From contig JASEIO010000001.1 in the NCBI GenBank assembly GCA_030017475.1, positions 13,495 to 77,494 of the forward strand: a DNA stretch of 64,000 nt, in the 5' to 3' direction. Made by a program: the position numbers and the translations under genes. Within the stretch, counting starts at the first letter, position 1, and each line of letters opens with the position of its first letter. Below, piece by piece: positions 1,830 to 62,894 of this stretch. The notes beneath the pieces were generated by a model, which searched no databases, was not told the DNA's origin, and worked only from the letters and a program-made list of their open reading frames with translations. Source of the stretch: a bacterium (GTDB lineage Bacteria; UBA9089; JASEIO01).

Positions 1830-3158
1830 GTGGATGGTTTAACGCCTAAACAGATTGTAAAAGAACTGGATAAGTACATTATTTCGCAGGACGAGGCCAA
1901 AAGGTCAGTGGCTATTGCCTTGAGAAACAGGACCAGGAGGAAGGAATTGCCAGAAGAGTTAAGGGACGAGGTAGCTCCAAAGAATATAATTATGATTGGT
2001 CCAACAGGGGTAGGGAAGACGGAGATTGCTCGAAGATTAGCGCGTCTTGCTAACGCCCCTTTTTTGAAAGTAGAAGCTACAAAGTTTACTGAGGTTGGTT
2101 ATGTGGGACGTGATGTAGAATCAATGATTAGGGATCTGACTAATATTGCGGTAGCTATGATCAAGCAAGAAGAGATTCAAAATGTAGAAGATAAGGCAAA
2201 GGAATTGGCTGAGGAACGTATTTTGGATATATTGTTGCCCGCTCCTCCGCAGAAAGATGTGGAGGATAAAGATCGGTTTATGGCAACCCGTGATAAATTG
2301 AGAAAAAGATTGCAAGAGGGAAGTCTTGAAGATCGATTAGTGGAAATTGAGGTGAAGGAGACCTTTGTTCCAATGATAGAGATATTTTCTACATCGGGAA
2401 TAGAGGGAATGGATTTGGGGTTTTCTGATGTCTTTTCCAATCTCTTTCCACAAAAGAAAAGAAGAAGAAAGGTAAGGATAAGAGAGGCAAGAGGAATATT
2501 ACAAAATGAAGAGGCTAACAAATTGATTGATATGGAGCAAGTGACAAGAAGGGCAATTAAAAAGGTAGAGGATTCAGGGATAATTTTTTTAGATGAGATA
2601 GATAAGATTTGTGGTGGTAATTCCAGCTCTTCGCCAGATGTATCGAGGGAGGGGGTACAAAGGGATATCCTTCCAATTGTTGAAGGTTCAACAGTTAATA
2701 CAAAGTACGGACCAGTTAAAACAGATCATATCTTATTCATTGCCGCAGGAACCTTTCATTCAACTAAACCATCGGATTTGATTCCAGAGTTACAGGGAAG
2801 ATTTCCAATTAGAGTTGAATTGACATCCTTAGGTGAAGAAGAGTTTAAGCGCATTTTAACTGAGCCTCGTAATGCCTTAATTAAACAGTATATAGCTCTT
2901 ATGAAAACAGAGGATGTGGAGTTGAGGTTTGAAGAAGACGCAATTTCGGAAATTGCCTCCATTGCCTGCCAGGTAAATGAACAGACAGAGAATATTGGAG
3001 CAAGGAGATTGCACACAATCCTTGAGAAGGTATTAGAGGAGATTTCTTTTTCGGCACCCGAACTGAAAAATAAAAAAATAAATATTACGGCGGATTATGT
3101 CAAAGAAAGACTTTCAAGGATTACCAAAGATAAAGACTTAAGTAAATACATACTATAA
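1830..3158 (+). CDS. hslU: ATP-dependent protease ATPase subunit HslU (ClpY)
   Basis: 442 aa. Walker [19 protein letters not shown]-terminus [30 protein letters not shown] is typical of HslU. GTG start at 1830 after AGGAGG 1815-1820. Confidence 0.95.
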
Positions 3159-3175
3159 ATTCTATAAATTATAAT

Positions 3176-3203
3176 TTAAGATTTAAATATAAAATGTCGA
3201 TAA
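3176..3203 (+). promoter_or_regulatory. putative sigma-28 (FliA)-type promoter upstream of flgB
   Basis: TTAAGATTT (3176-3184), 11-nt spacer, GTCGATAA (3196-3203). Compare the enteric sigma-28 consensus TAAAGTTT-N11-GCCGATAA. The same architecture recurs upstream of flgD. Confidence 0.4.
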
Positions 3204-3259
3204 ATATAATAAGATAAAGAACAGAAGGAGCTGATTTCTGATTTAATGGGAGGGGGAAG

Positions 3260-3679
3260 ATGTTTAACCACACTCTTTGGGGAAAAACAATAAATATTTT
3301 AGAGAAAGGACTTGATGCTGCCACCCTACGTCATCAAGTAATAGCTGATAATATTTCGAATGTAAATACCCCTGGATTTAAAAGAAAGGGGGTCTTATTT
3401 GAGAAGGAATTAAAAGAGGCACTGACCAGGAGACATAGATTTCAAACCAAAACCACTCATCCAAAACATATAAAGTTTACAAGTAGAGACCCTCAAGATG
3501 TCTTTCCTAAAATATTCACTGAATCTCACACATTTTATAGAAATGATTTAGGTAATGTTGATATAGATATAGAGATGTCTAATTTGGCAAAGAACCAAAT
3601 CATGTACAATGCCTTTGTAGAGAGGATTTCAGGTGGATTTAGACTCTTAAGGACTGTACTTAAGGGAGGAGGGATATAA
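3260..3679 (+). CDS. flgB: flagellar basal-body rod protein FlgB
   Basis: 139 aa. N-terminal rod motif LRHQVIADNISNVNTPGFKRK. First gene of the flagellar cluster; RBS GGGAGGGGG. Confidence 0.9.
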   Translation: MFNHTLWGKTINILEKGLDAATLRHQVIADNISNVNTPGFKRKGVLFEKELKEALTRRHRFQTKTTHPKHIKFTSRDPQDVFPKIFTESHTFYRNDLGNVDIDIEMSNLAKNQIMYNAFVERISGGFRLLRTVLKGGGI

Positions 3680-4120
3680 ATGGGATTATTTGATGCTATT
3701 GATACATCGAGTTCGGGTTTAACTGCTGAGCGCTTAAGGATGGATGTAATTGCCAATAATATTGCTAATGTCAACACAACTCGTACCCCTGAAGGTGGGC
3801 CATACCGAAGACAACAGGTAATCTTTGAGCCAAGAGAATCCCCAAGATTTAGCATTCCATTTGTAGGTAGAGATAGAAAACTCGAACCAGGGAAGGGAGT
3901 TAGGGTTGTGGCTATCCAGGAGGATGAGTCTCCACCTCGATTGGAATATAGGCCAGGTCATCCTGATGCGGATGAGAATGGGTATGTTAGATTGCCAAAT
4001 GTAAATATTGTAGTAGAGATGACAGATATGATTACTGCCACTCGTGCATATGAGGCAAATGTTCAAGTAATAACTTCTGCCAAGGATATGATGATGAGGG
4101 CATTGAGAATTGGTCACTAG
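3680..4120 (+). CDS. flgC: flagellar basal-body rod protein FlgC
   Basis: 146 aa. N-terminus LRMDVIANNIANVNTTRTPEGGPYRRQ and C-terminus EMTDMITATRAYEANVQV are FlgC signatures. Translationally coupled to flgB. Confidence 0.9.
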   Translation: MGLFDAIDTSSSGLTAERLRMDVIANNIANVNTTRTPEGGPYRRQQVIFEPRESPRFSIPFVGRDRKLEPGKGVRVVAIQEDESPPRLEYRPGHPDADENGYVRLPNVNIVVEMTDMITATRAYEANVQVITSAKDMMMRALRIGH

Positions 4121-4191
4121 ATTAGTTGTCAGTTGTTTAGATACCTATGGCTTGGAAAACCGATAACTAAATAACTAAGGGACGATGCAAG

Positions 4192-4500
4192 ATGCAGGTT
4201 GATTTGAATTCATTGTTACCAAAGCCTATATCTTCTGAAGCTAAGCCGATAAAAAAAGAGAGATCAGACTCTAGCGCTTTAATTGGTACCTTTTCAGAGG
4301 TTTTAAAAGGTGCCTTGACAGATGTAAATGACTTAGCCAATGAGGCAGATCTACTTTCACAAAAATTGGTTACAGGAGAGATTGATAATATTCATGGGGT
4401 TATGATTGCTGTATCAAAGGCAGAAGTGGCATTAGATTTGACTAATCAGATTAGAAATCGAGTGATAAGGGCTTATGAAGAAATAATGCGTATGCGCTAA
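4192..4500 (+). CDS. fliE: flagellar hook-basal body complex protein FliE
   Basis: 102 aa. C-terminus NQIRNRVIRAYEEIMRMR is typical of FliE. Sits between flgC and fliF. Confidence 0.85.
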   Translation: MQVDLNSLLPKPISSEAKPIKKERSDSSALIGTFSEVLKGALTDVNDLANEADLLSQKLVTGEIDNIHGVMIAVSKAEVALDLTNQIRNRVIRAYEEIMRMR

Positions 4501-4556
4501 GGTTATTTGTCAGGTGTTAGTATCTAAATATCTAAAAACTAAAAAGGGGAGGGGAA

Positions 4557-6216: not shown

Positions 6217-7239
6217 GTGATTATTATGGCGGCTGTTGGGGAGCTAACAGGGCCTCAAAAGGCAGCTATACTTTTGGTTTCATTGGGTGAGGATGCCTCA
6301 GCAGATGTTTTTAAACATCTGCGTGATGAAGAGATTGAACAGATAACCTTAGAGATTGCAAGATTGCCGAGGATTGACGCAGAGCAAAGACACCGTGTTA
6401 TGGTTGAGTTTCATCAGATGATTCAAGCTCAGGAGTTTATTTCTCAAGGTGGAATTGAATATGCTCGGGAGGTGTTAGAGCGGTCTTTGGGTTCAAGTAA
6501 AGCAGCAGAGATAATTAATAGATTGATTTCTTCTTTACAAGTGAAGCCATTCGATTTTATAAGGAAGGCTGAACCGAGACAACTTTTGAACTTTATTCAG
6601 AATGAACATCCGCAGACCATTGCCTTAGTTTTGTCATATCTGCCTCCTGATAAGGCTTCAGAAGTTCTATCACAACTTCCTGCTGAACTTCAAACAGATG
6701 TTACTCAGCGTATTGCCTTTATGGATAGGACCTCTCCTGAGGTTTTGAAAGATGTGGAAAGGGTATTGGAGAAGAAGCTATCCTCTTTTATCTCAGAAGA
6801 ATATACTGCTGTTGGTGGAATTCAAACTATAGTAGATATGTTGAATATGGCAGATAGAGGGACAGAGAAGACAATTTTAGAGAGTTTAGGGGAACAGAAT
6901 CCAGAACTGGTAGAAGAGATAAAAAAGAGGATGTTTGTATTTGAAGATATTGTTTTGTTGGATGATAGATCTTGTCAAAAGGTTTTGAGAGAGGTGGAGA
7001 TATCGGATTTGGCGCTTGCTTTAAAAGGAGTGGAGGAAAAGATAAAAGATAAGATATTTAATAATATGCCTAAACGTGCTGCAGCAATGCTTCGGGATGA
7101 ATTGGAGTATTTAGGTCCGGTTAGGGCGCGCGATGTAGAAGAGGCTCAGCAAAAGATAGTAAATATTATAAGACAATTAGAAGATTCTGGAGATATTATT
7201 GTTTCTCGTGGCGGGAAAGGAGAGGCTATAATTGAATAA
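6217..7239 (+). CDS. fliG: flagellar motor switch protein FliG
   Basis: 340 aa. LTGPQKAAILLVSLGED N-terminus, ARM-repeat middle domain, and C-terminal torque-helix region DRSCQKVLREV ... MPKRAAAMLRDELEYLGPVRARDVEEAQQKIVNIIRQLEDSGDI. Confidence 0.9.
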   Translation: MIIMAAVGELTGPQKAAILLVSLGEDASADVFKHLRDEEIEQITLEIARLPRIDAEQRHRVMVEFHQMIQAQEFISQGGIEYAREVLERSLGSSKAAEIINRLISSLQVKPFDFIRKAEPRQLLNFIQNEHPQTIALVLSYLPPDKASEVLSQLPAELQTDVTQRIAFMDRTSPEVLKDVERVLEKKLSSFISEEYTAVGGIQTIVDMLNMADRGTEKTILESLGEQNPELVEEIKKRMFVFEDIVLLDDRSCQKVLREVEISDLALALKGVEEKIKDKIFNNMPKRAAAMLRDELEYLGPVRARDVEEAQQKIVNIIRQLEDSGDIIVSRGGKGEAIIE

Positions 7240-8032
7240 GATTTATAAATCTTCCTACCTTCCACCAGATGGTCCAAAAGTAATAATAGATCAAGAAGCG
7301 ATTGCTTCAACTGGAGGTCATACTGTTTTAGAGACATTAGATAATCGAATAAGGCAGGCACAAAAAAGACTTCTTAAGCTTAATGCAGAGATTGAAAGAA
7401 AAAAAGAGGAGGCACAAACATTAAAAGAGACAATAGTTCAAGAGGCGAATAAAAAGGCAGAAAAAGTTTTAGAAGAGGCAAAATGGAAAGGAGAGAAGGA
7501 AATCGAGCGTATTAAAAGACAGGCAGAAGAGGAAGGTAGAAAGAAAGGAGAGGAAGAGGGTTTTAGACAAGGGAGGCAGACAGTACAGAAACTTTTAAAT
7601 AAGCTTGAGGATATAATTACAGAGGCAAAGGTAAAAAGGAATGAGATTATTCGTTCTTCAGAGGCTGATATTATGTGTTTAGCGATTCTTATAGCAGAAA
7701 AGATTATTGGGTCTGAAATCTCAACAAATAGAGAGGTTGTTTTAAATAATGTAAAAAAGGCATTGAAAAAGATAACTGGAAAGGAAGAGATTGTAATTAG
7801 AGTGAATATAGATGATTTAGAATTGGTAAAAGGGCACAAGTCGGAGTTCTTAAATCAGGTTAGGACCTTACGAAAGATAGATTTTGAAGAGGATCCATCT
7901 ATAGAACGAGGAGGATGTAGAATATTGACTGACTTTGGTTCAGTTGATGCGAGACTTTCCACTCAATTGGATGAAATAAGGAAGAGTTTACTCAATGTAG
8001 CTGAACAGGTCAAAATAGAACCAGAGATATAG
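7232..8032 (+). CDS. fliH: flagellar assembly protein FliH (FliI ATPase regulator)
   Basis: 266 aa. Overlaps the fliG stop. Charged coiled-coil N-terminal half and FliH/YscL-like C-terminus. Placed between fliG and fliI. Confidence 0.7.
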   Translation: MNKIYKSSYLPPDGPKVIIDQEAIASTGGHTVLETLDNRIRQAQKRLLKLNAEIERKKEEAQTLKETIVQEANKKAEKVLEEAKWKGEKEIERIKRQAEEEGRKKGEEEGFRQGRQTVQKLLNKLEDIITEAKVKRNEIIRSSEADIMCLAILIAEKIIGSEISTNREVVLNNVKKALKKITGKEEIVIRVNIDDLELVKGHKSEFLNQVRTLRKIDFEEDPSIERGGCRILTDFGSVDARLSTQLDEIRKSLLNVAEQVKIEPEI

Positions 8033-8071
8033 ATACGGAGACTGGTTAACATATACAAATGGAGAATAGAG

Positions 8072-9385
8072 ATGGGGGTATATGTAGAGAGGTATAAAGA
8101 GGTGATAAATGGAGTGGACCCGATTAGATTATGCGGTCGAGTGACTAAAGTTATTGGATTAGTGATTGAAGCTGCGGGTCCTTCAGCTCGAATTGGAGAG
8201 ATCTGTCTGATTAGACTACCAGATGGATCGGAGATACGGGCAGAGGTTGTGGGATTTAGAGAAAACCGTGTTTTGTTAATGCCTATTGGTGGGATGGAAG
8301 GTATTGGTCCAGGATGTGAGGTAATTGCTACTTCACGGCCTTTAACTATAAAAGTAGGAGAAGGGTTACGTGGAAGGATATTGGATGGGATTGGAAATCC
8401 TATAGATGGGAAAGGAGAGATTGAGGCAAGTACGGAGTATTCAATCATCAATTTTCCTCCAGATCCATTAACCCGTAAAAGGGTGACCGAGCCATTATCT
8501 GTAGGAATAAGGGCAATCGATTCTACCTTGACCTTTGGTAAAGGGCAAAGGATGGGAATATTTTCTGGGTCTGGGGTTGGTAAGTCAACACTAATGGGAA
8601 TGATTGCAAGATATACCTCTGCCACGATTAATGTAATTGGACTAATCGGAGAAAGGGGAAGAGAAGTAAGGGAGTTTATTGAGAGGGATTTAGGAGAAGA
8701 AGGTTTGAAAAGGTCGGTTTTGGTAGTAGCTACAAATGATAAGCCCCCTCTAATTAGGTTAAGGGGTGCCTTTGTAACTATAACTATTGCTGAATATTTT
8801 AGGGATAAAGGGTATGATGTAATGTTAATGATGGATTCAATAACACGCTTTGCAAGGGCACAAAGAGAGGTAGGGTTAGCAATTGGAGAACCACCAGCAC
8901 AACGTGGGTTCACTCCTTCGGTGTTTGAGCTTTTACCGAAATTGCTTGAAAGGTCTGGAAATTCCGATAAAGGCTCAATCACTGGTATCTATACGATCTT
9001 AGTGGATGCCGATGATATGAATGAGCCAATTGCGGATAATGTAAGGGCAATCTTAGATGGACACATTGTATTGTCTCGGAATTTGGCATCTCGGAATCAT
9101 TATCCAGCTATTGATGTATTAGAGAGTGTATCTCGTTGTATGATCGATATTGTTTCTGAGCAACATGAAAAGTCCTCTCGGAGGTTAAGAGAGGTATTGG
9201 CAGTAATCCGCGATGCACAAGATCTAATTGATATTGGAGCTTATGTAAAGGGATCAAATCCTAAGATTGATTATGCTATTACCATGATTTCAAAGGTAAA
9301 TGAGTTTTTACGTCAAGGGATTCAAGAGAGATGTGATTATGAATCCACTATAAGTAGATTGTTAGAGATGTTCCCAGAGCAGTAA
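8072..9385 (+). CDS. fliI: flagellum-specific ATP synthase FliI
   Basis: 437 aa. Walker A GSGVGKST, Walker B MLMMDSITRFARAQRE; overall T3SS-ATPase/F1-beta-like architecture. Confidence 0.95.
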   Translation: MGVYVERYKEVINGVDPIRLCGRVTKVIGLVIEAAGPSARIGEICLIRLPDGSEIRAEVVGFRENRVLLMPIGGMEGIGPGCEVIATSRPLTIKVGEGLRGRILDGIGNPIDGKGEIEASTEYSIINFPPDPLTRKRVTEPLSVGIRAIDSTLTFGKGQRMGIFSGSGVGKSTLMGMIARYTSATINVIGLIGERGREVREFIERDLGEEGLKRSVLVVATNDKPPLIRLRGAFVTITIAEYFRDKGYDVMLMMDSITRFARAQREVGLAIGEPPAQRGFTPSVFELLPKLLERSGNSDKGSITGIYTILVDADDMNEPIADNVRAILDGHIVLSRNLASRNHYPAIDVLESVSRCMIDIVSEQHEKSSRRLREVLAVIRDAQDLIDIGAYVKGSNPKIDYAITMISKVNEFLRQGIQERCDYESTISRLLEMFPEQ

Positions 9386-9432
9386 TATTATTACAATGGA
9401 TTATATGGACTGCTGGGCGAAGCGAGGTTGAT

Positions 9433-20331: not shown

Positions 20332-21351
20332 ATGGAAGAGGATACCACCCTTTCTCAAGAAGAGATTGATGCATTATTAGTAGAAGGAGGAGAGGTTGAA
20401 AAGGGAGAGCTTCCGATGACAGATATGGAAATTCAATCCCTAACTTCTTTCCTTTCAAAAGTCAGATCTAAGATAGCTTCGTCCATCACTTCTCTTTTAA
20501 AGAGGAGATTTGATATATCCAATCTTACAATCTCCTGCATCTCAACCGGAGAGTTGAAAGAGAGATTAGAGGGTGAATTTGTAGTTGCCAAAATCGAGTA
20601 TACTAAAGGTTTAATCGGAGAGGGTATACTAATCATTTCTAAGGATAATGGGGCTATTATATCTGATATAGTAATGGGTGATGATGGGACTTCTCCTCCT
20701 GAGGAGTTAGATGACTTATACCTTAATGCCTTAGGAGAGGTGATTACTCAAATGGTAAATCAAATGAACATGGCCCTTGACAAAAAGATAGAAGCCCTTT
20801 CACCAGAAGTAAGTATAATAGATTTTACCTCTCCGGATATTGACCTATCTATTTTAAAAGAACCAAATATCTTGTTTTGTACTTATGATCTATCGGTAGA
20901 AGGTTTGATTGAAGATAAACTGTTTCAGTTGTTTCCAGTAGACCTTGCCAAACAGGTATTAGTCTTGCGAAAGGATAAGGCCGCAGCACCACCACATGCC
21001 AAAAGGGTACCAATGCAGGAGGCAGTTTCTGTTCACCCTGTTCAATTCGGTACCTTAAAACCCAGTGAAAAGACTTCACCACCTTCAAATATCGACTTAC
21101 TTATGGATGTACCTATGCAGGTTACAATAGAACTTGGTAGGACTGAGATGTTGATAAAAGATATACTGAAACTTGGAGAAGGTTCAGTTGTTAAACTGGA
21201 TAAGGCAGCAGGTGAGCCAGTTGATTTGTTGGTTAATGGTAAATTGGTGGCTAAAGGTGGAGTGGTAGTAGTTGATGAGAACTTTGGAGTTAGAATTACA
21301 GATATAATCTCTCCAGTTGAGAGACTTGGTTGTGTTAAAAGTAACGAGTAG
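20332..21351 (+). CDS. fliY: flagellar motor switch protein FliY (CheC-like domain fused to FliN domain)
   Basis: 339 aa. N-terminus TLSQEEIDALL aligns with B. subtilis FliY. C-terminal SpoA/FliN domain PMQVTIELGRTEMLIKDILKLGEGSVVKLDKAAGEPVDLLVNGKLVAKGGVVVVDENFGVRITDII. Confidence 0.85.
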   Translation: MEEDTTLSQEEIDALLVEGGEVEKGELPMTDMEIQSLTSFLSKVRSKIASSITSLLKRRFDISNLTISCISTGELKERLEGEFVVAKIEYTKGLIGEGILIISKDNGAIISDIVMGDDGTSPPEELDDLYLNALGEVITQMVNQMNMALDKKIEALSPEVSIIDFTSPDIDLSILKEPNILFCTYDLSVEGLIEDKLFQLFPVDLAKQVLVLRKDKAAAPPHAKRVPMQEAVSVHPVQFGTLKPSEKTSPPSNIDLLMDVPMQVTIELGRTEMLIKDILKLGEGSVVKLDKAAGEPVDLLVNGKLVAKGGVVVVDENFGVRITDIISPVERLGCVKSNE

Positions 21352-21409
21352 ATTGGTTGTCAGTTTTTAGTTTCTTATCTAATAACTGATAACTAAGAGG
21401 GGGTAATTA

Positions 21410-22046: not shown

Positions 22047-23879
22047 GTGGACTTATATAATTCCAATTTGGCCTTATTAAGAAAGGTAGAACCAGGTTTG
22101 TTCTATCGCCTACTTCGGGTTTCGAGGAATACCAGCTCGCATTTAAAACAAAAATTATCTCTTCCTCTACTCCTTAATTTTGATTTGCGGAATGCAGATG
22201 TGGTTGTAGTATTAGGATTTGGAATGGGAAGGCATATCCCTCAGATTGTAGAAAGGATTTCCAGGAGTTGTTTTCTTTTGATAATTGAGAGCGATTTAGG
22301 GATTTTTAAAGAGGCTTTACACCACATAAATCTCATTCCTTTATTTTCAAATTGCCGTGTTTCTCTATCCGTTGGAGAAGATCCCTTCAATGCCACCCGG
22401 GTTAGATTGGATAATTATTATGGAGTGCTGACTATAGCTAAAATAAAGGTTATTGAGTATTCGCCATCTATAGAGGTTTCACCTACCTATTATCAAAAGG
22501 TAAGGGATAATCTAAAGGATGCAGCAGAGATGGCAGTTAGAAATATCGCCACTATGAGTAAATTTTCATCCATTTGGAGAGGGCATGTTTTAAAGAATAT
22601 TACAGCCATTATCAAAAATCCAGGAGCGAATACATTGTGGGGTAAGTTTAAAGATATACCTTCGATTATTGTAGCAGCGGGTCCCTCCTTGGACAAAAAT
22701 GTGCTTGAGTTAAAAAAGGCAAAAAACCGTGCCTTGATAGTTTGCGTGGATACAGCCTTACGTACCCTTTATAATAATGGAATCCGACCAGATTTAGTGG
22801 TGTCCATTGATGCCCAAGATTTTAATCTAAAGGATTTTGAAGGGGTAGAGTTAACCGAGGAGGTGCTTTTGGCGGTTCCAGTGGTTTATCCGCCAATTAT
22901 TGAACGCTTTAATAATAGAGTATTTATAACCAGTTATGGACATCCATTAGTGGATTGGTTAGAGAGATCTATTGGAAAGAAGGGATATACAAAGGTTGGT
23001 GGTAGTGTAGCTACAACCTGTTTTGATTTCTTAATAAGGGCAGGTGCTAACCCCATTATTTTTGTGGGACAAGATTTGGCTTTCACTGAAGGGAAGACCC
23101 ATACTGGGTGCTCATTTGAGGTAGAAGATATCTTCTTAAATTCAATCGATAAATTCTGCACCTTAGAGATGATGTATAGAGAAATGATAAAGGAGAGACA
23201 AGACCTAATCGAAGTTGAGGATATCTATGGTGGAAAGGTAGAGACCTCAAAGCAAATGCTTGGTTGGTTAAAATGGTTGGAATCTCAAGTAAAAGAATCA
23301 GGAAGAGTTTGTATTGATGCTACTGAAGGAGGAGCAAGAATAAAAGGGACCCGCGTCATGAGATTGAAGGATGCTATTAAATACTACTGCAAAAAAGAGG
23401 TTAACATAAAGGGGATTTTATATAATGCCATAGATCTTTATCGGCAACCCAGAACAGAGGCATTAGTGGAGGAAATGAAAAGGTTAATTCAGGAATGTTA
23501 CTCTTTAGAAGAGATTGGGAAGAAAGGCAAAGAGACAGCAAGTAAGTTGATAGATATCCTATTTAGTGAAAAAAGGACAACGGATGTAACCAGTCAGTTA
23601 TTCTCTCAAATGGGTTCTTTTTATCAACAGATTTTTGGAAACCACTATCTTATGGAACTTTTTAGATGGTCGATTGAACCTTTAATTGCTGAGGTAGATA
23701 GGTTAAAGCAGGGTAAATCTCCTATGGTAGTGGCTAAGAGATGTGAGCACTTTTTCCAGGAGATTATGAAAATTATCCGAGAGATAATTTTACAGTTAGA
23801 AGAGGCAAAGGTTCAATTGGAAGATTTGGAATTACAAAAAGGCATGAGAAAACTTCATACATTTTGGCTGGAAGCCTGA
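22047..23879 (+). CDS. motility accessory factor (Maf) family protein, DUF115/MptE-like putative glycosyltransferase
   Basis: 610 aa. N-terminus MDLYNSNLALLRKVEPGLFYRL resembles Campylobacter Maf N-termini. DUF115 core VVVLGFGMGRHIPQIVE and IIVAAGPSLDKNVLELKKAKNRALIVCVDTALRTLYNNGIRPDLVVSIDAQ. Alpha-helical C-terminal half. Confidence 0.7.
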   Translation: MDLYNSNLALLRKVEPGLFYRLLRVSRNTSSHLKQKLSLPLLLNFDLRNADVVVVLGFGMGRHIPQIVERISRSCFLLIIESDLGIFKEALHHINLIPLFSNCRVSLSVGEDPFNATRVRLDNYYGVLTIAKIKVIEYSPSIEVSPTYYQKVRDNLKDAAEMAVRNIATMSKFSSIWRGHVLKNITAIIKNPGANTLWGKFKDIPSIIVAAGPSLDKNVLELKKAKNRALIVCVDTALRTLYNNGIRPDLVVSIDAQDFNLKDFEGVELTEEVLLAVPVVYPPIIERFNNRVFITSYGHPLVDWLERSIGKKGYTKVGGSVATTCFDFLIRAGANPIIFVGQDLAFTEGKTHTGCSFEVEDIFLNSIDKFCTLEMMYREMIKERQDLIEVEDIYGGKVETSKQMLGWLKWLESQVKESGRVCIDATEGGARIKGTRVMRLKDAIKYYCKKEVNIKGILYNAIDLYRQPRTEALVEEMKRLIQECYSLEEIGKKGKETASKLIDILFSEKRTTDVTSQLFSQMGSFYQQIFGNHYLMELFRWSIEPLIAEVDRLKQGKSPMVVAKRCEHFFQEIMKIIREIILQLEEAKVQLEDLELQKGMRKLHTFWLEA

Positions 23880-24983: not shown

Positions 24984-25058
24984 TTATAAGCTATAAGCTG
25001 TAAGGATTAAGCAGTAAGCTTTTCCTTATTTTAGTCCTAATCCTTTTTTGATTCAGTT

Positions 25059-30376: not shown

Positions 30377-30451
30377 AGATCTTAACTGTAAGGATTAAGC
30401 TTAAAGGAAACTTAATTTTTTAATCTTATAGATTAGTAAATGGGAGGGAAA

Positions 30452-31318: not shown

Positions 31319-31413
31319 ATTATGAAGAGAGCAGTAATTCTACTTTTAGGTATTTGAGAAGCTTTTAACATTTTTTTCTTGCGTTATGATGGAAGGGATG
31401 GTATAATAGAAAG

Positions 31414-31719: not shown

Positions 31720-31794
31720 ATAATTTTTCTTTTTTCCATGTTTTCCCGTTTTCCATACTTACACAGATTCAGAGAGCTGATTTGAAGGTGAGTG

Positions 31795-32574
31795 ATGGCG
31801 AAGTCAGAAGAGGAAATTTGGAAGCAGTATAAAAAGACAGGGGATCCAAAATTAAGAGAAGAGTTAATCATAAGATATGCCCCCATGGTTAAATACATTG
31901 CTGGAAGAATTGCAGTTTCTACTCCTCCATCAATTGAATATGATGATTTAGTAAGTTATGGCGTCTTAGGGTTGATTGATGCTATTGAAAGGTATGATCC
32001 TAAACATGGATCAAAGTTTAAGACTTATGCTACGAGTAGGATTAAAGGATCAATCTTTGATGAATTAAGGTTACTTGATTGGGTACCAAGACAGATTAGA
32101 AGAAGGTCAAAGCAGCTTGAAGGTGTATATGCAGAGTTAGAGAGTAAATACGGAAGGGCAGTTAGAGATGAGGAAGTAGCTGAGGAGTTGGGGATAGGTG
32201 TGGAGGAGTTGCAAAATCTTATCACGAGCGTAAGTGGCACATCTCTTATTTCTTTAGAAGATATGAAACATTTAGGTGATGATGATGAAGTGGCTATGTT
32301 TTCCACAATTGAAAACCCTGAGACTCAAAATCCAGAGGCAATTTTAGAAAAGGAAGAGGTGAAGAATCTTCTTGTTGAGGCAATCAATAGACTTCCACAA
32401 AAGGAACGTGAAGTTATTACTCTTTACTATTATGAGGAATTGACTCTAAAGGAGATTGGTGAAGTTCTTGGTGTTACTGAGTCAAGGATTTCTCAACTTC
32501 ATACTAAGGCAATTTTAAGACTTCGTGGATTTCTTTCTAAGATGAGAAGAGTATCCAAAGGTTCAGTTGCCTAA
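31795..32574 (+). CDS. fliA: flagellar sigma factor sigma-28 (FliA/SigD)
   Basis: About 259 aa. Region 2 (YDDLVSYGVLGLIDAIERYDPKHGSKFKTYATSRIKGSIFDELR) and region 4 HTH (LTLKEIGEVLGVTESRISQLHTKAILRLR). Confidence 0.9.
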   Translation: MAKSEEEIWKQYKKTGDPKLREELIIRYAPMVKYIAGRIAVSTPPSIEYDDLVSYGVLGLIDAIERYDPKHGSKFKTYATSRIKGSIFDELRLLDWVPRQIRRRSKQLEGVYAELESKYGRAVRDEEVAEELGIGVEELQNLITSVSGTSLISLEDMKHLGDDDEVAMFSTIENPETQNPEAILEKEEVKNLLVEAINRLPQKEREVITLYYYEELTLKEIGEVLGVTESRISQLHTKAILRLRGFLSKMRRVSKGSVA

Positions 32575-53733: not shown

Positions 53734-53775
53734 TTTTTCTTGACGCAATCTGTTTATAAAAGGAGGCTAAGAAAG

Positions 53776-55536
53776 ATGGTTTATGATCCAACGAAACTCA
53801 AGGATTGGCAGATTGCTGAAGAGGCAGAAAAGAATATGCCAACACCTTCGGAGTGGAGAGAAAGGTTAGGACTTGAAAGGGATGAAATCATTCCTTATGG
53901 AAGGATATGCAAGCTCGATTTTCTAAAGATTATTGAGCGGTTAAAAGACCGGCCCGACGGCAAATATATAGATGTTACTGCTATTACCCCAACCCCTTTT
54001 GGTGAGGGAAAGACTACAACTACTATTGGCTTGATAGAAGGCTTAGGTAAAAGGGGTAAGAATGTAGGTGGCTGCATACGCCAACCCTCTGGTGGTCCTA
54101 CTATGAATATCAAGGGTACAGCTGCAGGCGGTGGTAATGCCCTGCTCATTCCAATGACTGAGTTTTCTTTAGGATTAACCGGTGATATTGATGCCATTAC
54201 CAATGCGCACAATTTGGCTATGGTAGCTTTGACCGCAAGACTTCAGCATGAGGCAAACTATTCAGATGAAGAACTTGCAAAACGTAACCTGAAACGACTA
54301 AACATTGATCCAAGAAGGGTAGAGATGGGTTGGGTACTTGACCTCTGTGCCCAAGCCTTACGCAACATCATTATCGGTATTGGTGGTAAGATGGATGGTT
54401 TCATGATGGAGTCAAGTTTTGGTATTACAGTCAGTTCTGAGCTTATGGCCATTCTTTCTATTGTTCGAGATTTAAAGGATTTGCGGGAGCGTTTGGGTAA
54501 GATCATAGTAGCTTATGACAAGAAGGGGAAGCCCATAACTACTTCTGATTTAGAAGTCGCTGGTGCTATGTGTGCCTGGATGAGAAATACAATCAATCCC
54601 ACATTGATATCGACAGTGGAGTATCAACCATGTATGGTCCATGCAGGTCCATTTGCAAATATTGCCGTTGGTCAGTCATCCATCATAGGGGATCGCATTG
54701 GTTTGAAGATATTCGACTACCACGTAACAGAGAGTGGATTCGGCGCAGATATAGGTTTTGAGAAATTCTGGAATGTGAAATGTCGCTTTAGTGGACTCGT
54801 TCCCAATGCTGTTGTAATCGTTGCTACAATAAGGGCATTGAAGATGCACGGCGGAGGACCCGAGGTAGTGCCTGGCAGACCTCTTCCGCAGGAATACCAG
54901 GAAAAGAATTTGGGGTTGATTGATAAAGGGGTTTTGAATCTCCTGCATCACATAAATAATGTGAAGAAATCAGGGGCTAAACCTGTTGTTTGTATCAATT
55001 GTTTCCCTACGGATACCGACGAAGAGATTGCTTTGGTTTGTAAGTATGTTGAGGAGACAGGAACTCGATGTGTACTCTCCAAGCACTGGCTTGAAGGTGG
55101 AGAGGGTGCCCTTGAACTGGCAGATGCAGTCATTGATGCATGTAACGAAGAGGTTGATTTTAAATACCTCTATCCATTGGAGATGCCGCTTCGGGAGAGA
55201 GTCGATCTGATTGCAAAAGAGATATATGGTGCAGATGGAGTCTCTTGGACACCTGAGGCAGAGGCAAAGGCCAAGGAGTTAGAGAGAAATCCTACGATGC
55301 AGGACTTCTCTACAATGATGGTCAAGACTCACTTAAGCCTTACCCATGACCCGACAATAAAAGGAACACCCAAGGGCTGGATTCTGCCAATACGTGATGT
55401 CTTAGTATTTGCAGGTGCAAAGTTCCTCTGCCCTTGTGCAGGTACTATCAAACTGATGCCAGGAACGGGTTCTGACCCAGCATTCAGAAGGGTGGATGTG
55501 GATGTGGATACAGGGAAGGTTACAGGTCTTTTCTGA
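53776..55536 (+). CDS. fhs: formate--tetrahydrofolate ligase
   Basis: About 586 aa. FTHFS motifs [15 protein letters not shown] and [16 protein letters not shown] 53776 follows AGGAGG. Confidence 0.9.
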
Positions 55537-55550
55537 GAAAGCTCTGGGCA

Positions 55551-57398
55551 ATGGATTCCAAAATTTGTCAAGAGATGAGGTATACTGTTCATTTTTATCC
55601 TGATGATGTGAAGGTAGTTGTCTATGCGGGAACTACTGTACTTCAAGCAGCAATTGATGCATCAATTTATATCCCCTCTTCCTGTGGTGGAGAAGGTCTC
55701 TGTGGAAGATGTAAAATAATTATTGATAAACAAGAGGTTTTAGCCTGCAGGACTCAGGTAGATACCGATTTAGAAGTAAGAATCCCTCCCGTTTTAGATA
55801 GAAAGAGATTGGCTAAAAAAAGGGTTGTCTTACCTATAAAAAAACAAGGGCTAAATCCCATTACCAAGAAATTATACCTCGAGCTTCCTTTCCCAAAACC
55901 TGGGGATAATATAGATGACCTTTATAGGTTAATCCAGGGGATTAAAAAAGAATGCGGTATTTCCCCCTCTATTGAATTTCCAATAATTCAAAAACTTTCC
56001 AAAACCCTTAGAGAGGAAAGGTTTAAGGTTACTGTTAGTTTGCTTGATGTAAATGAGAAGCCTACTATTGTAAATGTAGAACCAGGAGATACAAGATCTA
56101 ATCACTATTCAATAGCCTTAGATATTGGTACTACTTCCATCTATGCTCAATTGTTAGATTTAGAGGAAGGTAAGGTGTTGGCTGAAACCTCCTGTTTTAA
56201 TCCTCAAATCGTTTGTGGAGAAGATATTATTTCAAGGATTGTGTATTCTTTAAAACCAGGGAATTTAAAGAGGTTACAAGAGTTAGTGGTAAAAGCCATA
56301 AATGAAATAGTGGAGGATTTAACTCATGTTGCCAAAATTGAGAAGTCAGATATTAATCAAATAGTAGTAGCTGGAAATACCACTATGATTCATCTATTAT
56401 TGGGGATAGATCCAAGGTATATTAGAGAATCCCCTTATACCCCAACCTGTAATTTTATTCCTCCTGTCAGGGCGAAGGAGATAGGGATAGATCTTCCTCC
56501 TTATGCCTATATCTACATCATACCTTCAATAGCGAGTTTCATAGGAGGGGATATCACCTCAGGGATTTTAGCCTCAAAGTTATACGAAACGCAAGAACTT
56601 TCCCTTTATATCGATATTGGAACAAATGGAGAGATAGTTTTGGGGAATAGAGAGATGCTCGTAGCATGTTCTTGTTCTGCTGGTCCTGCCTTTGAAGGTG
56701 GAGGAGTAAGTTGCGGTACATTTGCTACCTTTGGAGCAATTGAGAGGGTAAGAATTGATAGGGATTATGAGCCAGAGATAGAGACTATTGGAGGAGTAAA
56801 ACCAAAAGGCATCTGTGGATCTGGATTGATTGATACCTTGGCAGAACTTTTAATGAATAAAATCATTTCTCAAAATGGTAAGTTTAATGAGGATCTGAAA
56901 ACAAAAAGGGTGAGGAAAAAGGAAGGTGGTTTTGAATACGTAATCTGTTGGAAGGATGAAAATGACTTAGACCATGATATTGTTTTGACTGAAGTAGATA
57001 TTGATAATTTGATGAGAGCAAAGGCAGCAATTTATGCTGGGATCTCTTTATTGCTTGAAAAGCTTGAATTAACCCTTTCGGATATTTCAAAGATTATAAT
57101 TTCAGGAAATTTTGGACAATATATTGATCTAAGAAATGCCCATATAATTGGGTTATTTCCAGAGGTATCCCTTGATAGATTTGAATATATTGGAAATGGC
57201 TCACTTTTAGGGGCAAGATTATGCTCCTTTTCTAAAGATATGCTGAATCAGACAAGGGAGATAGCGAATTCTGTTACCAATATAGAGCTGTCGGATAATC
57301 CACGGTTTTATGACGAGTATCTACAGGCATTATTTTTACCACATACCAATATGGAGGAATTTCCAGGAGTCAGCGAAAAACTAAAAAAGAGGGCATAA
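55551..57398 (+). CDS. reductive activator of corrinoid Fe-S protein (RACo-like: 2Fe-2S ferredoxin domain plus ASKHA ATPase domain)
   Basis: 615 aa. N-terminal plant-type ferredoxin fold with CGGEGLCGRCK ... C. C-terminal actin-like ATPase (DIGTTS, DIGTNGE, GSGL). Sits within the fhs/folD/acsC/acsE cluster. Confidence 0.7.
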   Translation: MDSKICQEMRYTVHFYPDDVKVVVYAGTTVLQAAIDASIYIPSSCGGEGLCGRCKIIIDKQEVLACRTQVDTDLEVRIPPVLDRKRLAKKRVVLPIKKQGLNPITKKLYLELPFPKPGDNIDDLYRLIQGIKKECGISPSIEFPIIQKLSKTLREERFKVTVSLLDVNEKPTIVNVEPGDTRSNHYSIALDIGTTSIYAQLLDLEEGKVLAETSCFNPQIVCGEDIISRIVYSLKPGNLKRLQELVVKAINEIVEDLTHVAKIEKSDINQIVVAGNTTMIHLLLGIDPRYIRESPYTPTCNFIPPVRAKEIGIDLPPYAYIYIIPSIASFIGGDITSGILASKLYETQELSLYIDIGTNGEIVLGNREMLVACSCSAGPAFEGGGVSCGTFATFGAIERVRIDRDYEPEIETIGGVKPKGICGSGLIDTLAELLMNKIISQNGKFNEDLKTKRVRKKEGGFEYVICWKDENDLDHDIVLTEVDIDNLMRAKAAIYAGISLLLEKLELTLSDISKIIISGNFGQYIDLRNAHIIGLFPEVSLDRFEYIGNGSLLGARLCSFSKDMLNQTREIANSVTNIELSDNPRFYDEYLQALFLPHTNMEEFPGVSEKLKKRA

Positions 57399-58276
57399 TG
57401 GGTGCAAAAATTATAAGTGGCGAGGAAATCTCTGAGGAGATTAGGAAAGGGTTGCGAGAGGAGATTAACAGGCTAAAAGAAAGAGGAGTGGTTCCAGGAC
57501 TTGCCACTCTCCTTGTTGGGGAAGATCCAGCTTCCCAGGTTTATGTTAGATCGAAAAGACGAGCTTGTGAGAAAGTTGGTATTCATACAGAACAGTATAC
57601 CTTTCCTGCTACGATTAAAGAAAAAGAGTTGTTAGGTAAGATTTCAGAACTTAACGAGAGGCATGACATAAATGGAATCTTGGTTCAACTTCCACTGCCT
57701 CCACAAATTGATTCTAATAGGGTCCTACTGTCTATTTCACCTGATAAGGATGTGGATGGATTTCATCCTATAAATGTAGGGAGGTATATGAGTATGAAAT
57801 ATTTCGATCAAATGATTGAGGAGGAATTATTCCTTCCATGTACTCCTCATGGGATTATTGAGATATTGAAAAGGACAGGTGTAGAATTAAAAGGGGCGGA
57901 GGCTGTAGTTGTAGGTCGGTCAAATATTGTAGGAAAACCAGTAGCATTGTTATTACTTGCCAATAATGCCACAGTAACTGTTTGCCATACTGGTACTAAA
58001 GATCTCGGAGAGGTCTGTAGAAGAGCTGATGTATTAATTGCTGCTATTGGCAGACCAAAGTTTATTCGAGGGGAGATGGTAAAGCAGGGTGCTGTGGTTA
58101 TTGATGTAGGAGTGAATAGAACCGAAGAAGGTTTGGTTGGTGATGTTTCGTTCCTGGAAGTTAAGGAAAAGGCATCCGCTATTACACCAGTTCCAGGTGG
58201 AGTGGGTCCAATGACTGTTACAATGCTTTTGGTAAATACAGTAAAGGCAGCTAAAAGACAGGAGAGTGGTGGGTAA
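57398..58276 (+). CDS. folD: bifunctional methylene-THF dehydrogenase / methenyl-THF cyclohydrolase
   Basis: 292 aa. GKPVALLL NAD(P)-binding motif; PVPGGVGPMT cyclohydrolase motif. Confidence 0.9.
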   Translation: MGAKIISGEEISEEIRKGLREEINRLKERGVVPGLATLLVGEDPASQVYVRSKRRACEKVGIHTEQYTFPATIKEKELLGKISELNERHDINGILVQLPLPPQIDSNRVLLSISPDKDVDGFHPINVGRYMSMKYFDQMIEEELFLPCTPHGIIEILKRTGVELKGAEAVVVGRSNIVGKPVALLLLANNATVTVCHTGTKDLGEVCRRADVLIAAIGRPKFIRGEMVKQGAVVIDVGVNRTEEGLVGDVSFLEVKEKASAITPVPGGVGPMTVTMLLVNTVKAAKRQESGG

Positions 58277-59454
58277 TGGAAGAGATTATGAGGGAAGAAG
58301 AGTTTTATAAAGATGCAGTTAAACCTATTAGAGAAGGAGAGATAATCGAGGGTGTAGTGGTCAAGATAGATCCAGAATGTATATTTGTTGATATTGGGTG
58401 TAAATCTGAAGGGATTGTACCTTTAAATGAATCAGGTGGAAAAAGAAAAGATATAAAGGTGGGAGATAGGATTTCGGTGTTTGTATTAAAGACAGAAGAT
58501 AGGGTAGTCCTTTCTAAAAAAAGGGCAGATTTAGAAAAAAGCTGGAGTATGGTAGAGCGTGCTTTTGAAACAGGTGAGATAATTGAGGCACGTGTTTTAA
58601 AGGTAGTAAAAGGTGGTTTATTAATTTCGCTTGGTTCTATCTTCGGTTTTTTACCTGCAGCACATTTGGAAAAGGGATTTGTCAAGGATCTTAAAAGGTA
58701 TGTAAATAAGTTATTAAGATTAAAGGTCTTGGAAGTAAACCGAAGACAGAATAGGGTTATTCTTTCACAAAAGGTAGTTTTGGAAGAGGAAGATAGGAAA
58801 AGAAAGGAGGCTTTATTAGATAGCTTAAGCGAGGGAGAGATTCGAAAAGGTAGTGTTTCAGGTATTACCTCTTTTGGTGTTTTTGTTGATTTAGGTGGGA
58901 TTGATGGCTTGGTTAGGAAGACGGAGTTATCATATAATAAGGTAAATCATCCAAAGGAGGTTATATCCAAAGGAGCGGAGGTGGATGTAAAGGTATTAAA
59001 ATTTAATCGTAAAGAAGGGAAGATATCTTTATCTATAAAACAAGCCTTGCCTGACCCTTGGGATTCAGTGGATAAGAAGTTTTCATTAGGGCAGATAGTT
59101 AAAGGAAAAGTGGTCAATATGACTAAAGCATGTGTATTTGTGGAACTTGAACCTGGAATCGATGGCTTGATCCCTTTGCGTGAGTTAGGGAAAAAAGGCA
59201 TAGGTTCCCCCCGTGATGTAGTAAAGATTGGGGATGAGGTAAGTGCTAAAATTTTAGAGATAGTTAAAGAGTCAAAAAGGATCATTTTAAGTATTCGTAG
59301 AATCTTTGATGATGAGGAAAGAAATGATATTAGTCGCTACCTTAATGCCCAAAAGAGGGAAAGACTTACATTGGGTGAAATAATTAAAGAGAAATTGGAG
59401 AATAGTGGGAAGAAGATAATACAGGAGGCGGTTAATGGGGTTAACCGGGATTGA
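58276..59454 (+). CDS. S1 RNA-binding domain protein (short four-S1-repeat ribosomal protein S1 homologue)
   Basis: 392 aa with four tandem S1 domains (G.VV.I....F.D.G..EG..P...). Size and layout resemble the roughly 380-aa S1 homologue of Firmicutes. Confidence 0.75.
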   Translation: MEEIMREEEFYKDAVKPIREGEIIEGVVVKIDPECIFVDIGCKSEGIVPLNESGGKRKDIKVGDRISVFVLKTEDRVVLSKKRADLEKSWSMVERAFETGEIIEARVLKVVKGGLLISLGSIFGFLPAAHLEKGFVKDLKRYVNKLLRLKVLEVNRRQNRVILSQKVVLEEEDRKRKEALLDSLSEGEIRKGSVSGITSFGVFVDLGGIDGLVRKTELSYNKVNHPKEVISKGAEVDVKVLKFNRKEGKISLSIKQALPDPWDSVDKKFSLGQIVKGKVVNMTKACVFVELEPGIDGLIPLRELGKKGIGSPRDVVKIGDEVSAKILEIVKESKRIILSIRRIFDDEERNDISRYLNAQKRERLTLGEIIKEKLENSGKKIIQEAVNGVNRD

Positions 59455-60787
59455 AATCTTTAAGAAGTTACCCAAAACAAATTGTGGTGAATGTGGGGTT
59501 CCTACCTGTCTTGCCTTTGCCATGAAACTTTCGCAAGGGAAGGCAGATTTAGAGGCTTGTCCCCATGTTTCAGCCAGTGTTAAAATGGAGCTTTCTGAGG
59601 CATCTCTACCTCCAATTCGTGGAGTTAGAATCGGTATTGAAGAATCTGCTTTAAAGATTGGAGAGGAAACTGTTCTTTTCCGTCATGACAAACGTTTTGA
59701 AAATCCCCCTGGTTTTGCTATATTAATTAGCGATTCAATGAAGAGGGAAGAGATTGAGGATAAGGTAAGTCAATTGAATACAGTGAAATTTGAAAGGGTT
59801 GGCTTAGAATTAAAACCAGAATTGGTGGCCATTAAGTGTGGATCAAAGGATAAAACCCAGTTTTCTTCTGTGGTAAAAACCATAATAGATAGAACAAAGA
59901 AGGGGATTATTTTAATTGAAGAGGATGTTGATATCTTGCAAGAGGCAGTGAAAATATGTAAAGAGAGAAGGCCCCTTTTATATGCTGCAACTGCGGCTAA
60001 TTATGAAACTATGGGGCGATTAGCCAAATCCAATAATTTGCCATTGTCGGTAAAAGGGCGTGATTTAGAGGAATTGGCTGAAATTACAAAGAGGCTTATG
60101 GATATGGGTATCCTGGATATGGTGATTGATCCGGGTTCAAATAATATAAAGCGTGCAGTGGAAGATCAAACCTTTATTAGACGTTTAGCATTGGAAAAAA
60201 CCTATAGACCCCTTGGTTTTCCAACAATTACCTTTCCTTGTGAGATGACAGATAATCCTATGAAAGAGATGCTTTACGCCTCAATCTTAGTTTCAAAATA
60301 CGCTGGGATTATTGTCTTATCTGACCTAAGTTCTCATTATATGTTTCCACTTCTTGTTTATAGAATGAATATTTATACGGATCCACAGCGTCCAATGACT
60401 ATGGAACAAGGTATTTATGAGATAAATGGTTCCCGAGAAGATTCACCAGTGATTATAACCACAAATTTCTCTTTGACCTATTTTATTGTGTCATCAGAAG
60501 TTGAGTCAAGTAAAGTTCCAACATGGCTTTTGGTTATGGACACAGAAGGTTTGTCTGTATTAACAAGTTGGGCAGCAGGTAAATTCGTTCCTGAGCTAAT
60601 TGCATCTTTTGTGAAAAAGGTAGGTATAGGAAATAGGGTGAGCCACCGGAAGCTTATTATCCCAGGATATGTAGCACAAATTAAAGGGGAATTGGAAGAG
60701 GAATTGGGGGGTGAATGGGAGGTCGTGGTCGGTTGTAGGGAGGCAGGAGATATCCCCGCCTTCCTTCAAAGATACGCCACAGCTTAA
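59435..60787 (+). CDS. acsC: corrinoid iron-sulfur protein large subunit (AcsC/CdhE-like)
   Basis: 450 aa. N-terminal 4Fe-4S motif CGECGVPTCLAFAMKLSQGKADLEACP. TIM-barrel and corrinoid-binding C-terminal parts consistent with CFeSP gamma subunit. Confidence 0.8.
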   Translation: MGLTGIEIFKKLPKTNCGECGVPTCLAFAMKLSQGKADLEACPHVSASVKMELSEASLPPIRGVRIGIEESALKIGEETVLFRHDKRFENPPGFAILISDSMKREEIEDKVSQLNTVKFERVGLELKPELVAIKCGSKDKTQFSSVVKTIIDRTKKGIILIEEDVDILQEAVKICKERRPLLYAATAANYETMGRLAKSNNLPLSVKGRDLEELAEITKRLMDMGILDMVIDPGSNNIKRAVEDQTFIRRLALEKTYRPLGFPTITFPCEMTDNPMKEMLYASILVSKYAGIIVLSDLSSHYMFPLLVYRMNIYTDPQRPMTMEQGIYEINGSREDSPVIITTNFSLTYFIVSSEVESSKVPTWLLVMDTEGLSVLTSWAAGKFVPELIASFVKKVGIGNRVSHRKLIIPGYVAQIKGELEEELGGEWEVVVGCREAGDIPAFLQRYATA

Positions 60788-60857
60788 TTTTCTGAGGAAA
60801 AAAGATTTTCTGATAAAGGTCTATGATTAGAAAACCGGTATGGAAGGTAGGGAGAAG

Positions 60858-61682
60858 ATGATTTTAATTGGAGAATCAATTAATGTGATGAGGAAAGATA
60901 TTTCGCAGGCGATAAAAGAGAGGGATAAGAAACCAATTCAAGATCTGGCATTACACCAGGTTGAAGCCGGAGCAGATTACCTTGACTTAAATATTGGTCC
61001 GTCGAGGAAAGAGGGTCCGGAAATAATGGAATGGATGGTTAATATTGTTCAGGATGTAGTAGATGTACCTTTATCTCTTGATACTACTAATTATTTAGCA
61101 ATTGAAGCGGGATTAAAGGTGGTTAAGAAAAGACCTATTATCAATTCCGTGTCTTCGCAAAAGGAAAGGTTGAAAAACACCCTTCCTTTAGCCAAGAAAT
61201 ATAACGTTCCATTTGTGGCTCTTTTATTGTCAGATGAAGGGATTCCGAGAGATGTCTCGGAGCGGGCAAATGTCTTATTTGAAATCCTATCCAGTTCTCA
61301 AGCTTTAGGAATTCCGAACGAGGACGTTTGGGTTGATCCTATTGTGCTTCCAGTATCAGCAGATCAAAAACAAATGGTTGAATTTGTGGAATTTTTAAAA
61401 GTCATTCCTGATTTAGTGGGAGAAGAATTAAAGACAATCTGTGGTCTTTCAAATGTTTCCAATGGTTCTCCAAAAGAATTGCGTAGTATCTTAAATTGTA
61501 CTTATCTCACAATGTTGCAGGAAGCCGGTTTATATTCAGCTATTGTGGATGTTTTAGATGAAAACATACTTAACACTGCCAAAGGGAAAATCTTAGATTC
61601 CTTTTCTTCACTCGATGTAGAGAAAACGAGATCGGTTTTAAAAAATGAGGTATTATATTGCCATTCCTGGCTTGAACTGTAG
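60858..61682 (+). CDS. acsE: methyltetrahydrofolate:corrinoid/iron-sulfur protein methyltransferase (MeTr, pterin-binding)
   Basis: About 274 aa. MILIGESINVMRKDISQAIKERDKKP ... LDLNIGP matches the MeTr/pterin-binding family. ATG 60858 follows GGGAG. Confidence 0.8.
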   Translation: MILIGESINVMRKDISQAIKERDKKPIQDLALHQVEAGADYLDLNIGPSRKEGPEIMEWMVNIVQDVVDVPLSLDTTNYLAIEAGLKVVKKRPIINSVSSQKERLKNTLPLAKKYNVPFVALLLSDEGIPRDVSERANVLFEILSSSQALGIPNEDVWVDPIVLPVSADQKQMVEFVEFLKVIPDLVGEELKTICGLSNVSNGSPKELRSILNCTYLTMLQEAGLYSAIVDVLDENILNTAKGKILDSFSSLDVEKTRSVLKNEVLYCHSWLEL

Positions 61683-62572: not shown

Positions 62573-62865
62573 AGCATACCCTCTTTCCGTTGATTACTTA
62601 AGCGAGATTTGAGAGTATATATAATATAATATATTCCTTATAGGATTGTCAATTAAAAAAGAAAAAGTCCTAAAGTTTTTGTAAGAATTACCCGATATAT
62701 ATAGTGAATGGAAACAATAAGTTAAAAAGGACAGCGTCCCTCCCTGTTGCTCTGTTTATAACATAAAGTATTTCATGTTGGCTAAGTAAATATTAGTTTA
62801 CTTAGCCTTTTTTATTAGTGATTCAATTTAGCCATTTAGATTTTTATTAGGATTTTAGATTTTTG

Positions 62866-62894
62866 TTGACAAGGAAGTATATTTGTGGTATAAT
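62866..62894 (+). promoter_or_regulatory. canonical sigma-70 promoter of pilM
   Basis: TTGACA (62866-62871), 17-nt spacer, TATAAT (62889-62894). 29 nt upstream of the pilM ATG in an AT-rich 350-bp intergenic region. Confidence 0.55.

Follow-up and report, generated by a model that had tools for sequence, protein, structure and literature searches.

A co-directional flagellar gene cluster of about 29 kb carries two closely similar sigma-28-type promoter motifs on its coding strand, one before its first gene, flgB, and the other before the hook-cap gene flgD, and it extends to a gene for a sigma-28 factor of the FliA/WhiG family. On the strength of the motifs, their placement and their recurrence in related loci, we consider it likely that both sites are functional sigma-28 (FliA) promoters. 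All positions refer to the window, by which we mean the whole 64-kb stretch of DNA analysed here.

Sequence and placement of the two sites

Family-profile gene calls place xerC (274-1161), hslV and hslU (1830-3158) at the upstream end of the window, followed directly by the flagellar genes in the order flgB, flgC, fliE, fliF, fliG, fliH, fliI and fliJ; then an SLT lytic transglycosylase gene, a gene for a ylxF-like MgtE_N protein and fliK (11052-11753); flgD, a giant flgE, flbD, motA, motB, fliL, fliM and fliY/N; and finally fliO, a Maf-like glycosyltransferase gene, fliPQR, flhB, flhA, flhF, flhG, an ORF of 101 amino acids, fliA and fapA. The preliminary description had named flgB and flgD as the genes downstream of the two sites, and both calls held: flgB (3260-3679, +) scores 110 bits for TIGR01396 against a cut-off of 59, and flgD (11831-12262, +), the first gene 3' of the second site, matches PF03963 and is identical to NCBI MDI6703079.1. 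The giant hook-protein gene flgE (12594-17060, +) encodes about 1488 amino acids from an ATG at 12594 with the RBS GAGGGAGG, a start that we prefer to the TTG at 12576 listed among the ORFs. No flagellin, flgM, flgK/L, che or codY gene was found in the 64-kb window; hslU is followed directly by flgB, and only the 101-aa ORF, which has no family matches, separates flhG from fliA.

The preliminary description had placed the cognate sigma factor gene at 31795, and family profiles bear this out, in the same co-directional cluster, with the start set at 31792 (fliA, 31792-32574, +; 277.8 bits against the cut-off of 189.6 for TIGR02479, and 374.2 against 343 for NF004935). The encoded protein matches solved sigma-28/WhiG structures (PDB 6PFV, 3e-79; E. 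coli FliA 6PMI, 1.4e-52; Aquifex sigma-28 1RP3, 3.6e-43) and is the presumed reader of both sites.

Site 1, the putative sigma-28 promoter of flgB (3176-3203, +), consists of the -35 element TTAAGATTT (3176-3184), an 11-nt spacer and the -10 element GTCGATAA (3196-3203), and lies in the 101-nt gap between hslU and flgB with its -10 element ending 56 nt 5' of the flgB ATG. Site 2, the putative internal sigma-28 promoter of flgD-flgE and the genes downstream (11774-11801, +), has the same -35 element TTAAGATTT (11774-11782) and an 11-nt spacer before the -10 element GCCGATAA (11794-11801); it occupies the 77-nt fliK-flgD gap upstream of the flgD RBS AGGAGG, and its -10 element ends 29 nt 5' of the flgD ATG. 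These strings and coordinates proved exact as first described, and both sites are on the coding strand. The asserted fit to the FliA consensus held as well: the -10 elements match GCCGATAA at 7 of 8 positions (site 1) and 8 of 8 (site 2), and the -35 elements fit at 6 of 8. The CGA core is intact in both, and site 1 has a T where the conserved C is expected. FliA-containing polymerase would be predicted to start at about 3210-3212 from site 1, which would leave about 50 nt of 5' UTR, and at about 11808-11810 from site 2. Identity between the sites is confined to 11 nt (TTAAGATTTAA) and G[T/C]CGATAA; since their spacers and flanks are unlike, they do not represent a duplicated segment. Neither belongs to the 20 largest of at least 60 repeat families, and the bipartite motif alone is common to both.

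The pattern used in the preliminary description had been derived from the two sites themselves, and with that origin it found 2 matches in the window and 0 in 100 shuffles. As an independent test, we searched both strands of the 64 kb for the textbook consensus TAAAGTTT-N11-GCCGATAA with up to three mismatches, which returned exactly sites 1 and 2 against 0.82 matches expected; 20% of shuffles reach at least two, and the whole-window count of consensus-like matches is by itself not significant. When only the cluster's 21 intergenic gaps (1560 nt) were shuffled, with their AT-rich composition kept, and only the coding strand was searched, 2 matches were found against 0.013 expected (P(>=2) = 1.5e-4). 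The significance of the pair thus rests on placement and strand, not on count.

The -35 element of both sites can be read in two registers, as TAAGATTT with a spacer of N11 or as TTAAGATT with N12, each matching 6 of 8 positions with the same two deviations from TAAAGTTT, and both spacers lie within the sigma-28 range of 11-12 nt (TAAA-N15/16-GCCGATA). N12 is the best register for a third site in the window, described below, and for most of the related sites, those of L002, L003, L037, L049, L129, L162, L166 and L167. The two sites had been credited with the same idiosyncratic -35 variant; that the variant is shared stands, but it is less peculiar than this suggests. TAAG or TTAAG variants of the -35 element occur in other lineages (L049 and L166), and the RACE-mapped T. 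denticola promoter PflaB2 has a -35 element TTAA and a -10 element CCGATAA (PMC9481697), the former resembling the N12 reading TTAAGATT of sites 1 and 2. Taken with that reading, PflaB2 places the shared variant within the known range. The third site, in turn, has the canonical TAAAGTTT, and the shared variant is therefore not general to the -35 elements of this organism.

Related loci and alternative readings

Few relatives of the lineage have been sampled: FliI-anchored scans of genome and metagenome contigs gave a best identity of 72%, and for FlgD the highest identity, the organism's own record aside, is 50%. Two relatives with 69% FliI identity carry TTAAACTTT-N12-GCCGATAA ahead of the flgB ATG, at a distance of 63 nt in L002 and 20 nt in L003, and in L003 the gap before flgB measures 88 nt, with no room for another promoter. 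The arrangement CTAAAGTTT...GCCGATA precedes flgB in L037 and L049 (labelled Armatimonadales or Capsulimonadaceae) and in L129, an unlabelled metagenome contig. Of 91 loci, 11 have a sigma-28-type motif with up to one mismatch in the 300 nt before flgB, where about 3% would be expected to; Clostridia-like loci with the order hslU-(codY)-flgB mostly have no site before flgB.

At the hook module, the nearest FlgD relative (L081, 50% identity) has the SLT-MgtE_N-flgD-flgE context of the window and a perfect TAAAGTTT-N13-GCCGATAA 45 nt before the flgD ATG. Perfect sites also stand 16 nt before the SLT gene in L162/L163 and before fliK in L167, and CTAAGG...GCCGATAAG precedes flbD-motA in L166. Six Ignavibacteria-like loci (L019, L032, L038, L101, L108 and L120) contain a perfect sigma-28 motif (for example at 12247-12273 of L032); it reads CTAAAAT[AT]ATT[CA]...CCGATAATG, is nearly identical in all six and lies about 100-105 nt before an ORF of 800-1000 amino acids that precedes flgD, making it a candidate for a conserved internal promoter in another phylum. 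In 69 loci the stretch from fliI to flgD (223 kb in all) holds 10 perfect matches to the minimal consensus on the coding strand versus 0 on the other, and 41 versus 10 when up to one mismatch is allowed, an asymmetry to be read with several loci being related and to which A-rich coding strands may contribute. As a positive control, the textbook late-operon site TAAAGTTT-N11-GTCGATAT was found before flgN-flgK in L164/L165, and the GTCGATA variant of site 1 thus occurs elsewhere. The separate flgD-giant flgE unit of L004 (67% FliI identity) has no convincing site, only GCCGATAG 540 nt upstream without a convincing -35 element; in many loci flgD is packed against fliK with zero gap, and in L001 and L083 the gene order after fliI differs. 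Given the Clostridia-like and L004 negatives, conservation is patchy.

That the sites are instead housekeeping promoters of the sigma-A (sigma-70) type, or AT-rich intergenic look-alikes of the sigma-28 consensus, strikes us as unlikely. A sigma-70-like match, TTTAAA-N17-TATAAT (3182-3210, +; 10/12), is a possible housekeeping promoter of flgB and overlaps site 1, site 2 also reads TTAAGA-17-GATAAT at 11774-11802 (9/12), and the mapped flgB promoter of C. difficile is of the SigA type (PMC3865298); a sigma-28-independent promoter would in any case be needed to begin fliA expression. However, sigma-70-like matches of this quality number 65 against 52.5 +/- 8.4 in shuffles and are hence uninformative, whereas the sigma-28 -10 element of site 2 matches at 8/8. 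Read in the sigma-70 register of site 2, site 1 has the -10 element GATAAA, without the invariant final T, and the relatives keep GCCGATAA, not a TATAAT box, at these positions.

A further possibility, which we regard as improbable, is that TTAAGATTTAA, the 11-mer common to both sites, serves as an operator for a dimeric DNA-binding regulator that coordinates the two units, and overlaps or replaces the -35 element. It forms a quasi-palindrome (at site 1 ATTTAA-GAT-TTAAAT, at site 2 CTTAA-GAT-TTAAG) whose inverted-repeat arms continue outside the common core in bases that differ between sites 1 and 2, and because the third sigma-28-like site has a canonical -35 element, only the two flagellar sites have the shared variant. 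Yet palindromy is already a property of the sigma-28 -35 consensus (AAAnTTT), and AT-rich spacers often contain short A/T palindromes; moreover, the 11-mer is not enriched (6 matches with up to one mismatch versus 6.7 expected, the other four outside promoter gaps), and no candidate regulator was identified. Pure coincidence between two non-functional look-alikes is very improbable: although whole-window shuffles yield at least two consensus-like matches in 20% of cases, both sites are intergenic, on the coding strand and directly before flagellar genes, with the gap-restricted probability given above, and they share an identical 11-mer and have the motif at the same positions in relatives.

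Predicted transcription and other elements of the window

If both sites are sigma-28 promoters, as we prefer, transcripts from site 1 would extend across the entire cluster as far as fliA, 28.5 kb downstream, and would close a positive feedback loop. From inside the cluster, site 2 would supply extra transcripts of the hook module, from flgD and the giant flgE through flbD and motAB onward, and so raise its transcript dose; transcripts from this internal promoter would also reach fliA, 20 kb downstream. No terminator-like hairpin was predicted on the coding strand of the hslU-flgB or fliK-flgD gap, and the few hairpins predicted inside the cluster all lie within coding sequence and are not commoner than in shuffles; with no convincing coding-strand terminator, both promoters would be expected to read through to fliA and thus to sustain the feedback. 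Initial, FliA-independent expression would have to come from another source, for which the window offers three options: read-through from xerC-hslVU, the sigma-70-like TTTAAA-N17-TATAAT that overlaps site 1 and is not enriched over shuffles, or an extended -10-like element before orf101-fliA. This last element (31379-31407) reads TTGCGT-N17-TGgTATAAT and ends 6 nt before the ATG of the 101-aa ORF, which lies immediately upstream of fliA, and it might provide fliA expression with a separate, perhaps leaderless, start.

A different hierarchy, one we find doubtful, would have the early flagellar genes driven chiefly by sigma-28 in an autocatalytic, one-tier 'sigma-28-first' scheme, with the flgB operon and the hook module both starting at sigma-28 promoters and fliA primed from 31379-31407. 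It is suggested by L003, where the site stands 20 nt from the flgB ATG in a gap without room for a second promoter; if true, sigma-28 would not be a factor for the late genes that is added to a sigma-A operon.

A single perfect sigma-28 consensus occurs in the window. It lies outside the flagellar cluster, at 62671-62698 (+), and is the third sigma-28-like site, a canonical TAAAGTTT-N12-CCCGATAT (searched with the full -35 octamer, one match in the window and 0 in 100 shuffles). About 80 nt 3' of it is an intrinsic-terminator-like hairpin (62780-62815, +) with a 12-bp stem (62780-62807) and a T-run, and from site to terminator an RNA of about 110 nt, containing no ORF, would be delimited. The unit sits between a divergent membrane-protein gene and the perfect sigma-70 promoter (62866-62894) of pilM, and is a candidate for a small RNA under sigma-28 control beside type IV pilus genes. 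An Rfam search of the whole window returned two tRNAs only, with no match in the 62.7-kb region or at the flgD-flgE spacer.

That spacer (12263-12593) is 331 nt long, ORF-free and AT-rich. Its blocks AAAAAGGGTTAGT, CGGCACT and GTTACCCTATTTTTGTG are kept in L081 (1503-2049), the sole close relative, whose proteins are 46-50% identical; its AGGGT and ACCCT can pair, and a 17-mer from it is absent from all other loci compared. For the giant flgE, the spacer may act as a leader or as a regulatory element. The FlgE protein itself is about three times the usual length, with nucleotide repeats inside its gene at 14100-15500 and Pfam matches to the terminal rod/hook domains only; L004 has a FlgE of 1501 amino acids (7103-11608, -).

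Several shorter elements recur between genes of the cluster. The motif TAGATTRGTTGTCAGTTNTT begins at the stop codons of flgC, fliE and fliY (4118-4175, 4499-4518 and 21349-21400), and downstream of flgC and fliY it pairs with AAC[C/T]GATAAC into a hairpin immediately ahead of the following RBS (z = -1.8 and -5.8); such intercistronic stem-loops possibly act in mRNA processing, stability or translational coupling. The string ACCGATAA at 4159-4166, before fliE, was considered as a third promoter of the cluster and rejected, being the 3' arm of an intercistronic hairpin and having no -35 element. An identical 15-mer, CTGTAAGGATTAAGC, is present in the fliQ-fliR gap (24998-25012) and the flhF-flhG gap (30386-30400).

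Between fliO and fliP, amid genes of the export apparatus, 22047-23879 encodes a Maf/MptE-like putative flagellin glycosyltransferase (PF01973, PF20157). Farther downstream, 53740-61682 holds Wood-Ljungdahl genes for formate-THF ligase, RACo, a CdhD/AcsD-type corrinoid protein and a pterin-binding methyltransferase. Wood-Ljungdahl, flagellar and type IV pilus genes thus share one contig, and the source organism is, judging by these genes, probably a motile acetogen or acetate oxidiser.

Comparison with known flagellar systems

The B. subtilis fla/che operon, as described in PMC3865298, has the promoters PA (SigA) and PD-3 (SigD) before flgB and the SigD-dependent promoters PylxF3 and PsigD inside the operon. 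The analogy with PD-3 drawn in the preliminary description is correct, and for the putative flgD promoter PylxF3 is, by analogy, the closer B. subtilis counterpart. Both clusters are long and co-directional, run from flgB to the sigD/fliA gene, adjoin hslVU (clpQY) and have the sigma gene last; both also have a sigma-28-type promoter, putative in the window, before flgB and an internal one at the ylxF-fliK-flgD-flgE hook module, and in B. subtilis each feeds back on the sigma gene, as the two sites of the window would. They differ in that the internal site stands directly before flgD here and before ylxF in B. subtilis, and in that the window has neither codY between hslU and flgB nor che genes (cheB/A/W/C/D) before fliA. 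Nor is a separate counterpart of the strong SigA promoter Pfla/che of B. subtilis evident here; there is only the overlapping 10/12 match, which is at shuffle level.

Enterobacteria have class 2/3 hybrid operons (fliAZ, flgMN and flgKL) with the consensus TAAAGTTT-N11-GCCGATAA, and their fliA is autoregulated by a sigma-28 promoter; their hook-basal-body operons belong to class 2, depend on FlhDC and lack sigma-28 promoters, and their fliA is not placed at the end of a flgB operon. The bipartite motif at sites 1 and 2 is the same as theirs, but putative sigma-28 promoters here precede flgB and flgD, whereas enterobacterial hook-basal-body operons have none.

In Treponema, the gene order according to Limberger et al. 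is reportedly tap1(fliK)-flgD-flgE-flbD-motA-motB-fliL-fliM, and we take tap1 to be the fliK homologue preceding flgD-flgE. The T. denticola promoter P-tap1, which heads the flagellar operon named after tap1, is described as sigma-28-like (PMC12878829). As with P-tap1 of T. denticola, T. phagedenis and T. pallidum, a sigma-28-like site in the window heads a hook/motor module, and the order after site 2 is the same; in contrast, the treponemal promoter precedes tap1/fliK and heads a separate operon, whereas site 2 lies between fliK and flgD in a continuous cluster.

For C. difficile, internal SigD sites have been predicted before motA and fliQ, RACE-mapped SigD sites precede flgM, fliC and the lytic transglycosylase gene CD0226, and the SigD consensus is given as TAAA-N15-18-CG (PMC3865298). 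The window resembles this system in having several SigD-type sites inside an early flagellar operon, and the perfect site before the SLT gene of L162/L163 recalls the one at CD0226. Unlike the window, C. difficile has a SigA promoter and no SigD site at flgB, and its internal sites lie at other gene boundaries.

If the preferred reading is correct, it shows how the flagellar genes of an uncultured bacterium with Wood-Ljungdahl genes would be regulated, by an autoregulatory sigma-28 loop combined with a hook-module booster. It would also extend a pattern that we see in several phyla, where the hook module (SLT/ylxF/fliK/flgD/flgE) tends to carry a sigma-28-type promoter of its own within the long early operon. 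The finding is solid but ordinary, the layout being already known from Bacillus subtilis and spirochaetes, and the view of flagellar regulation is unchanged, the same logic having been documented in B. subtilis and Treponema.
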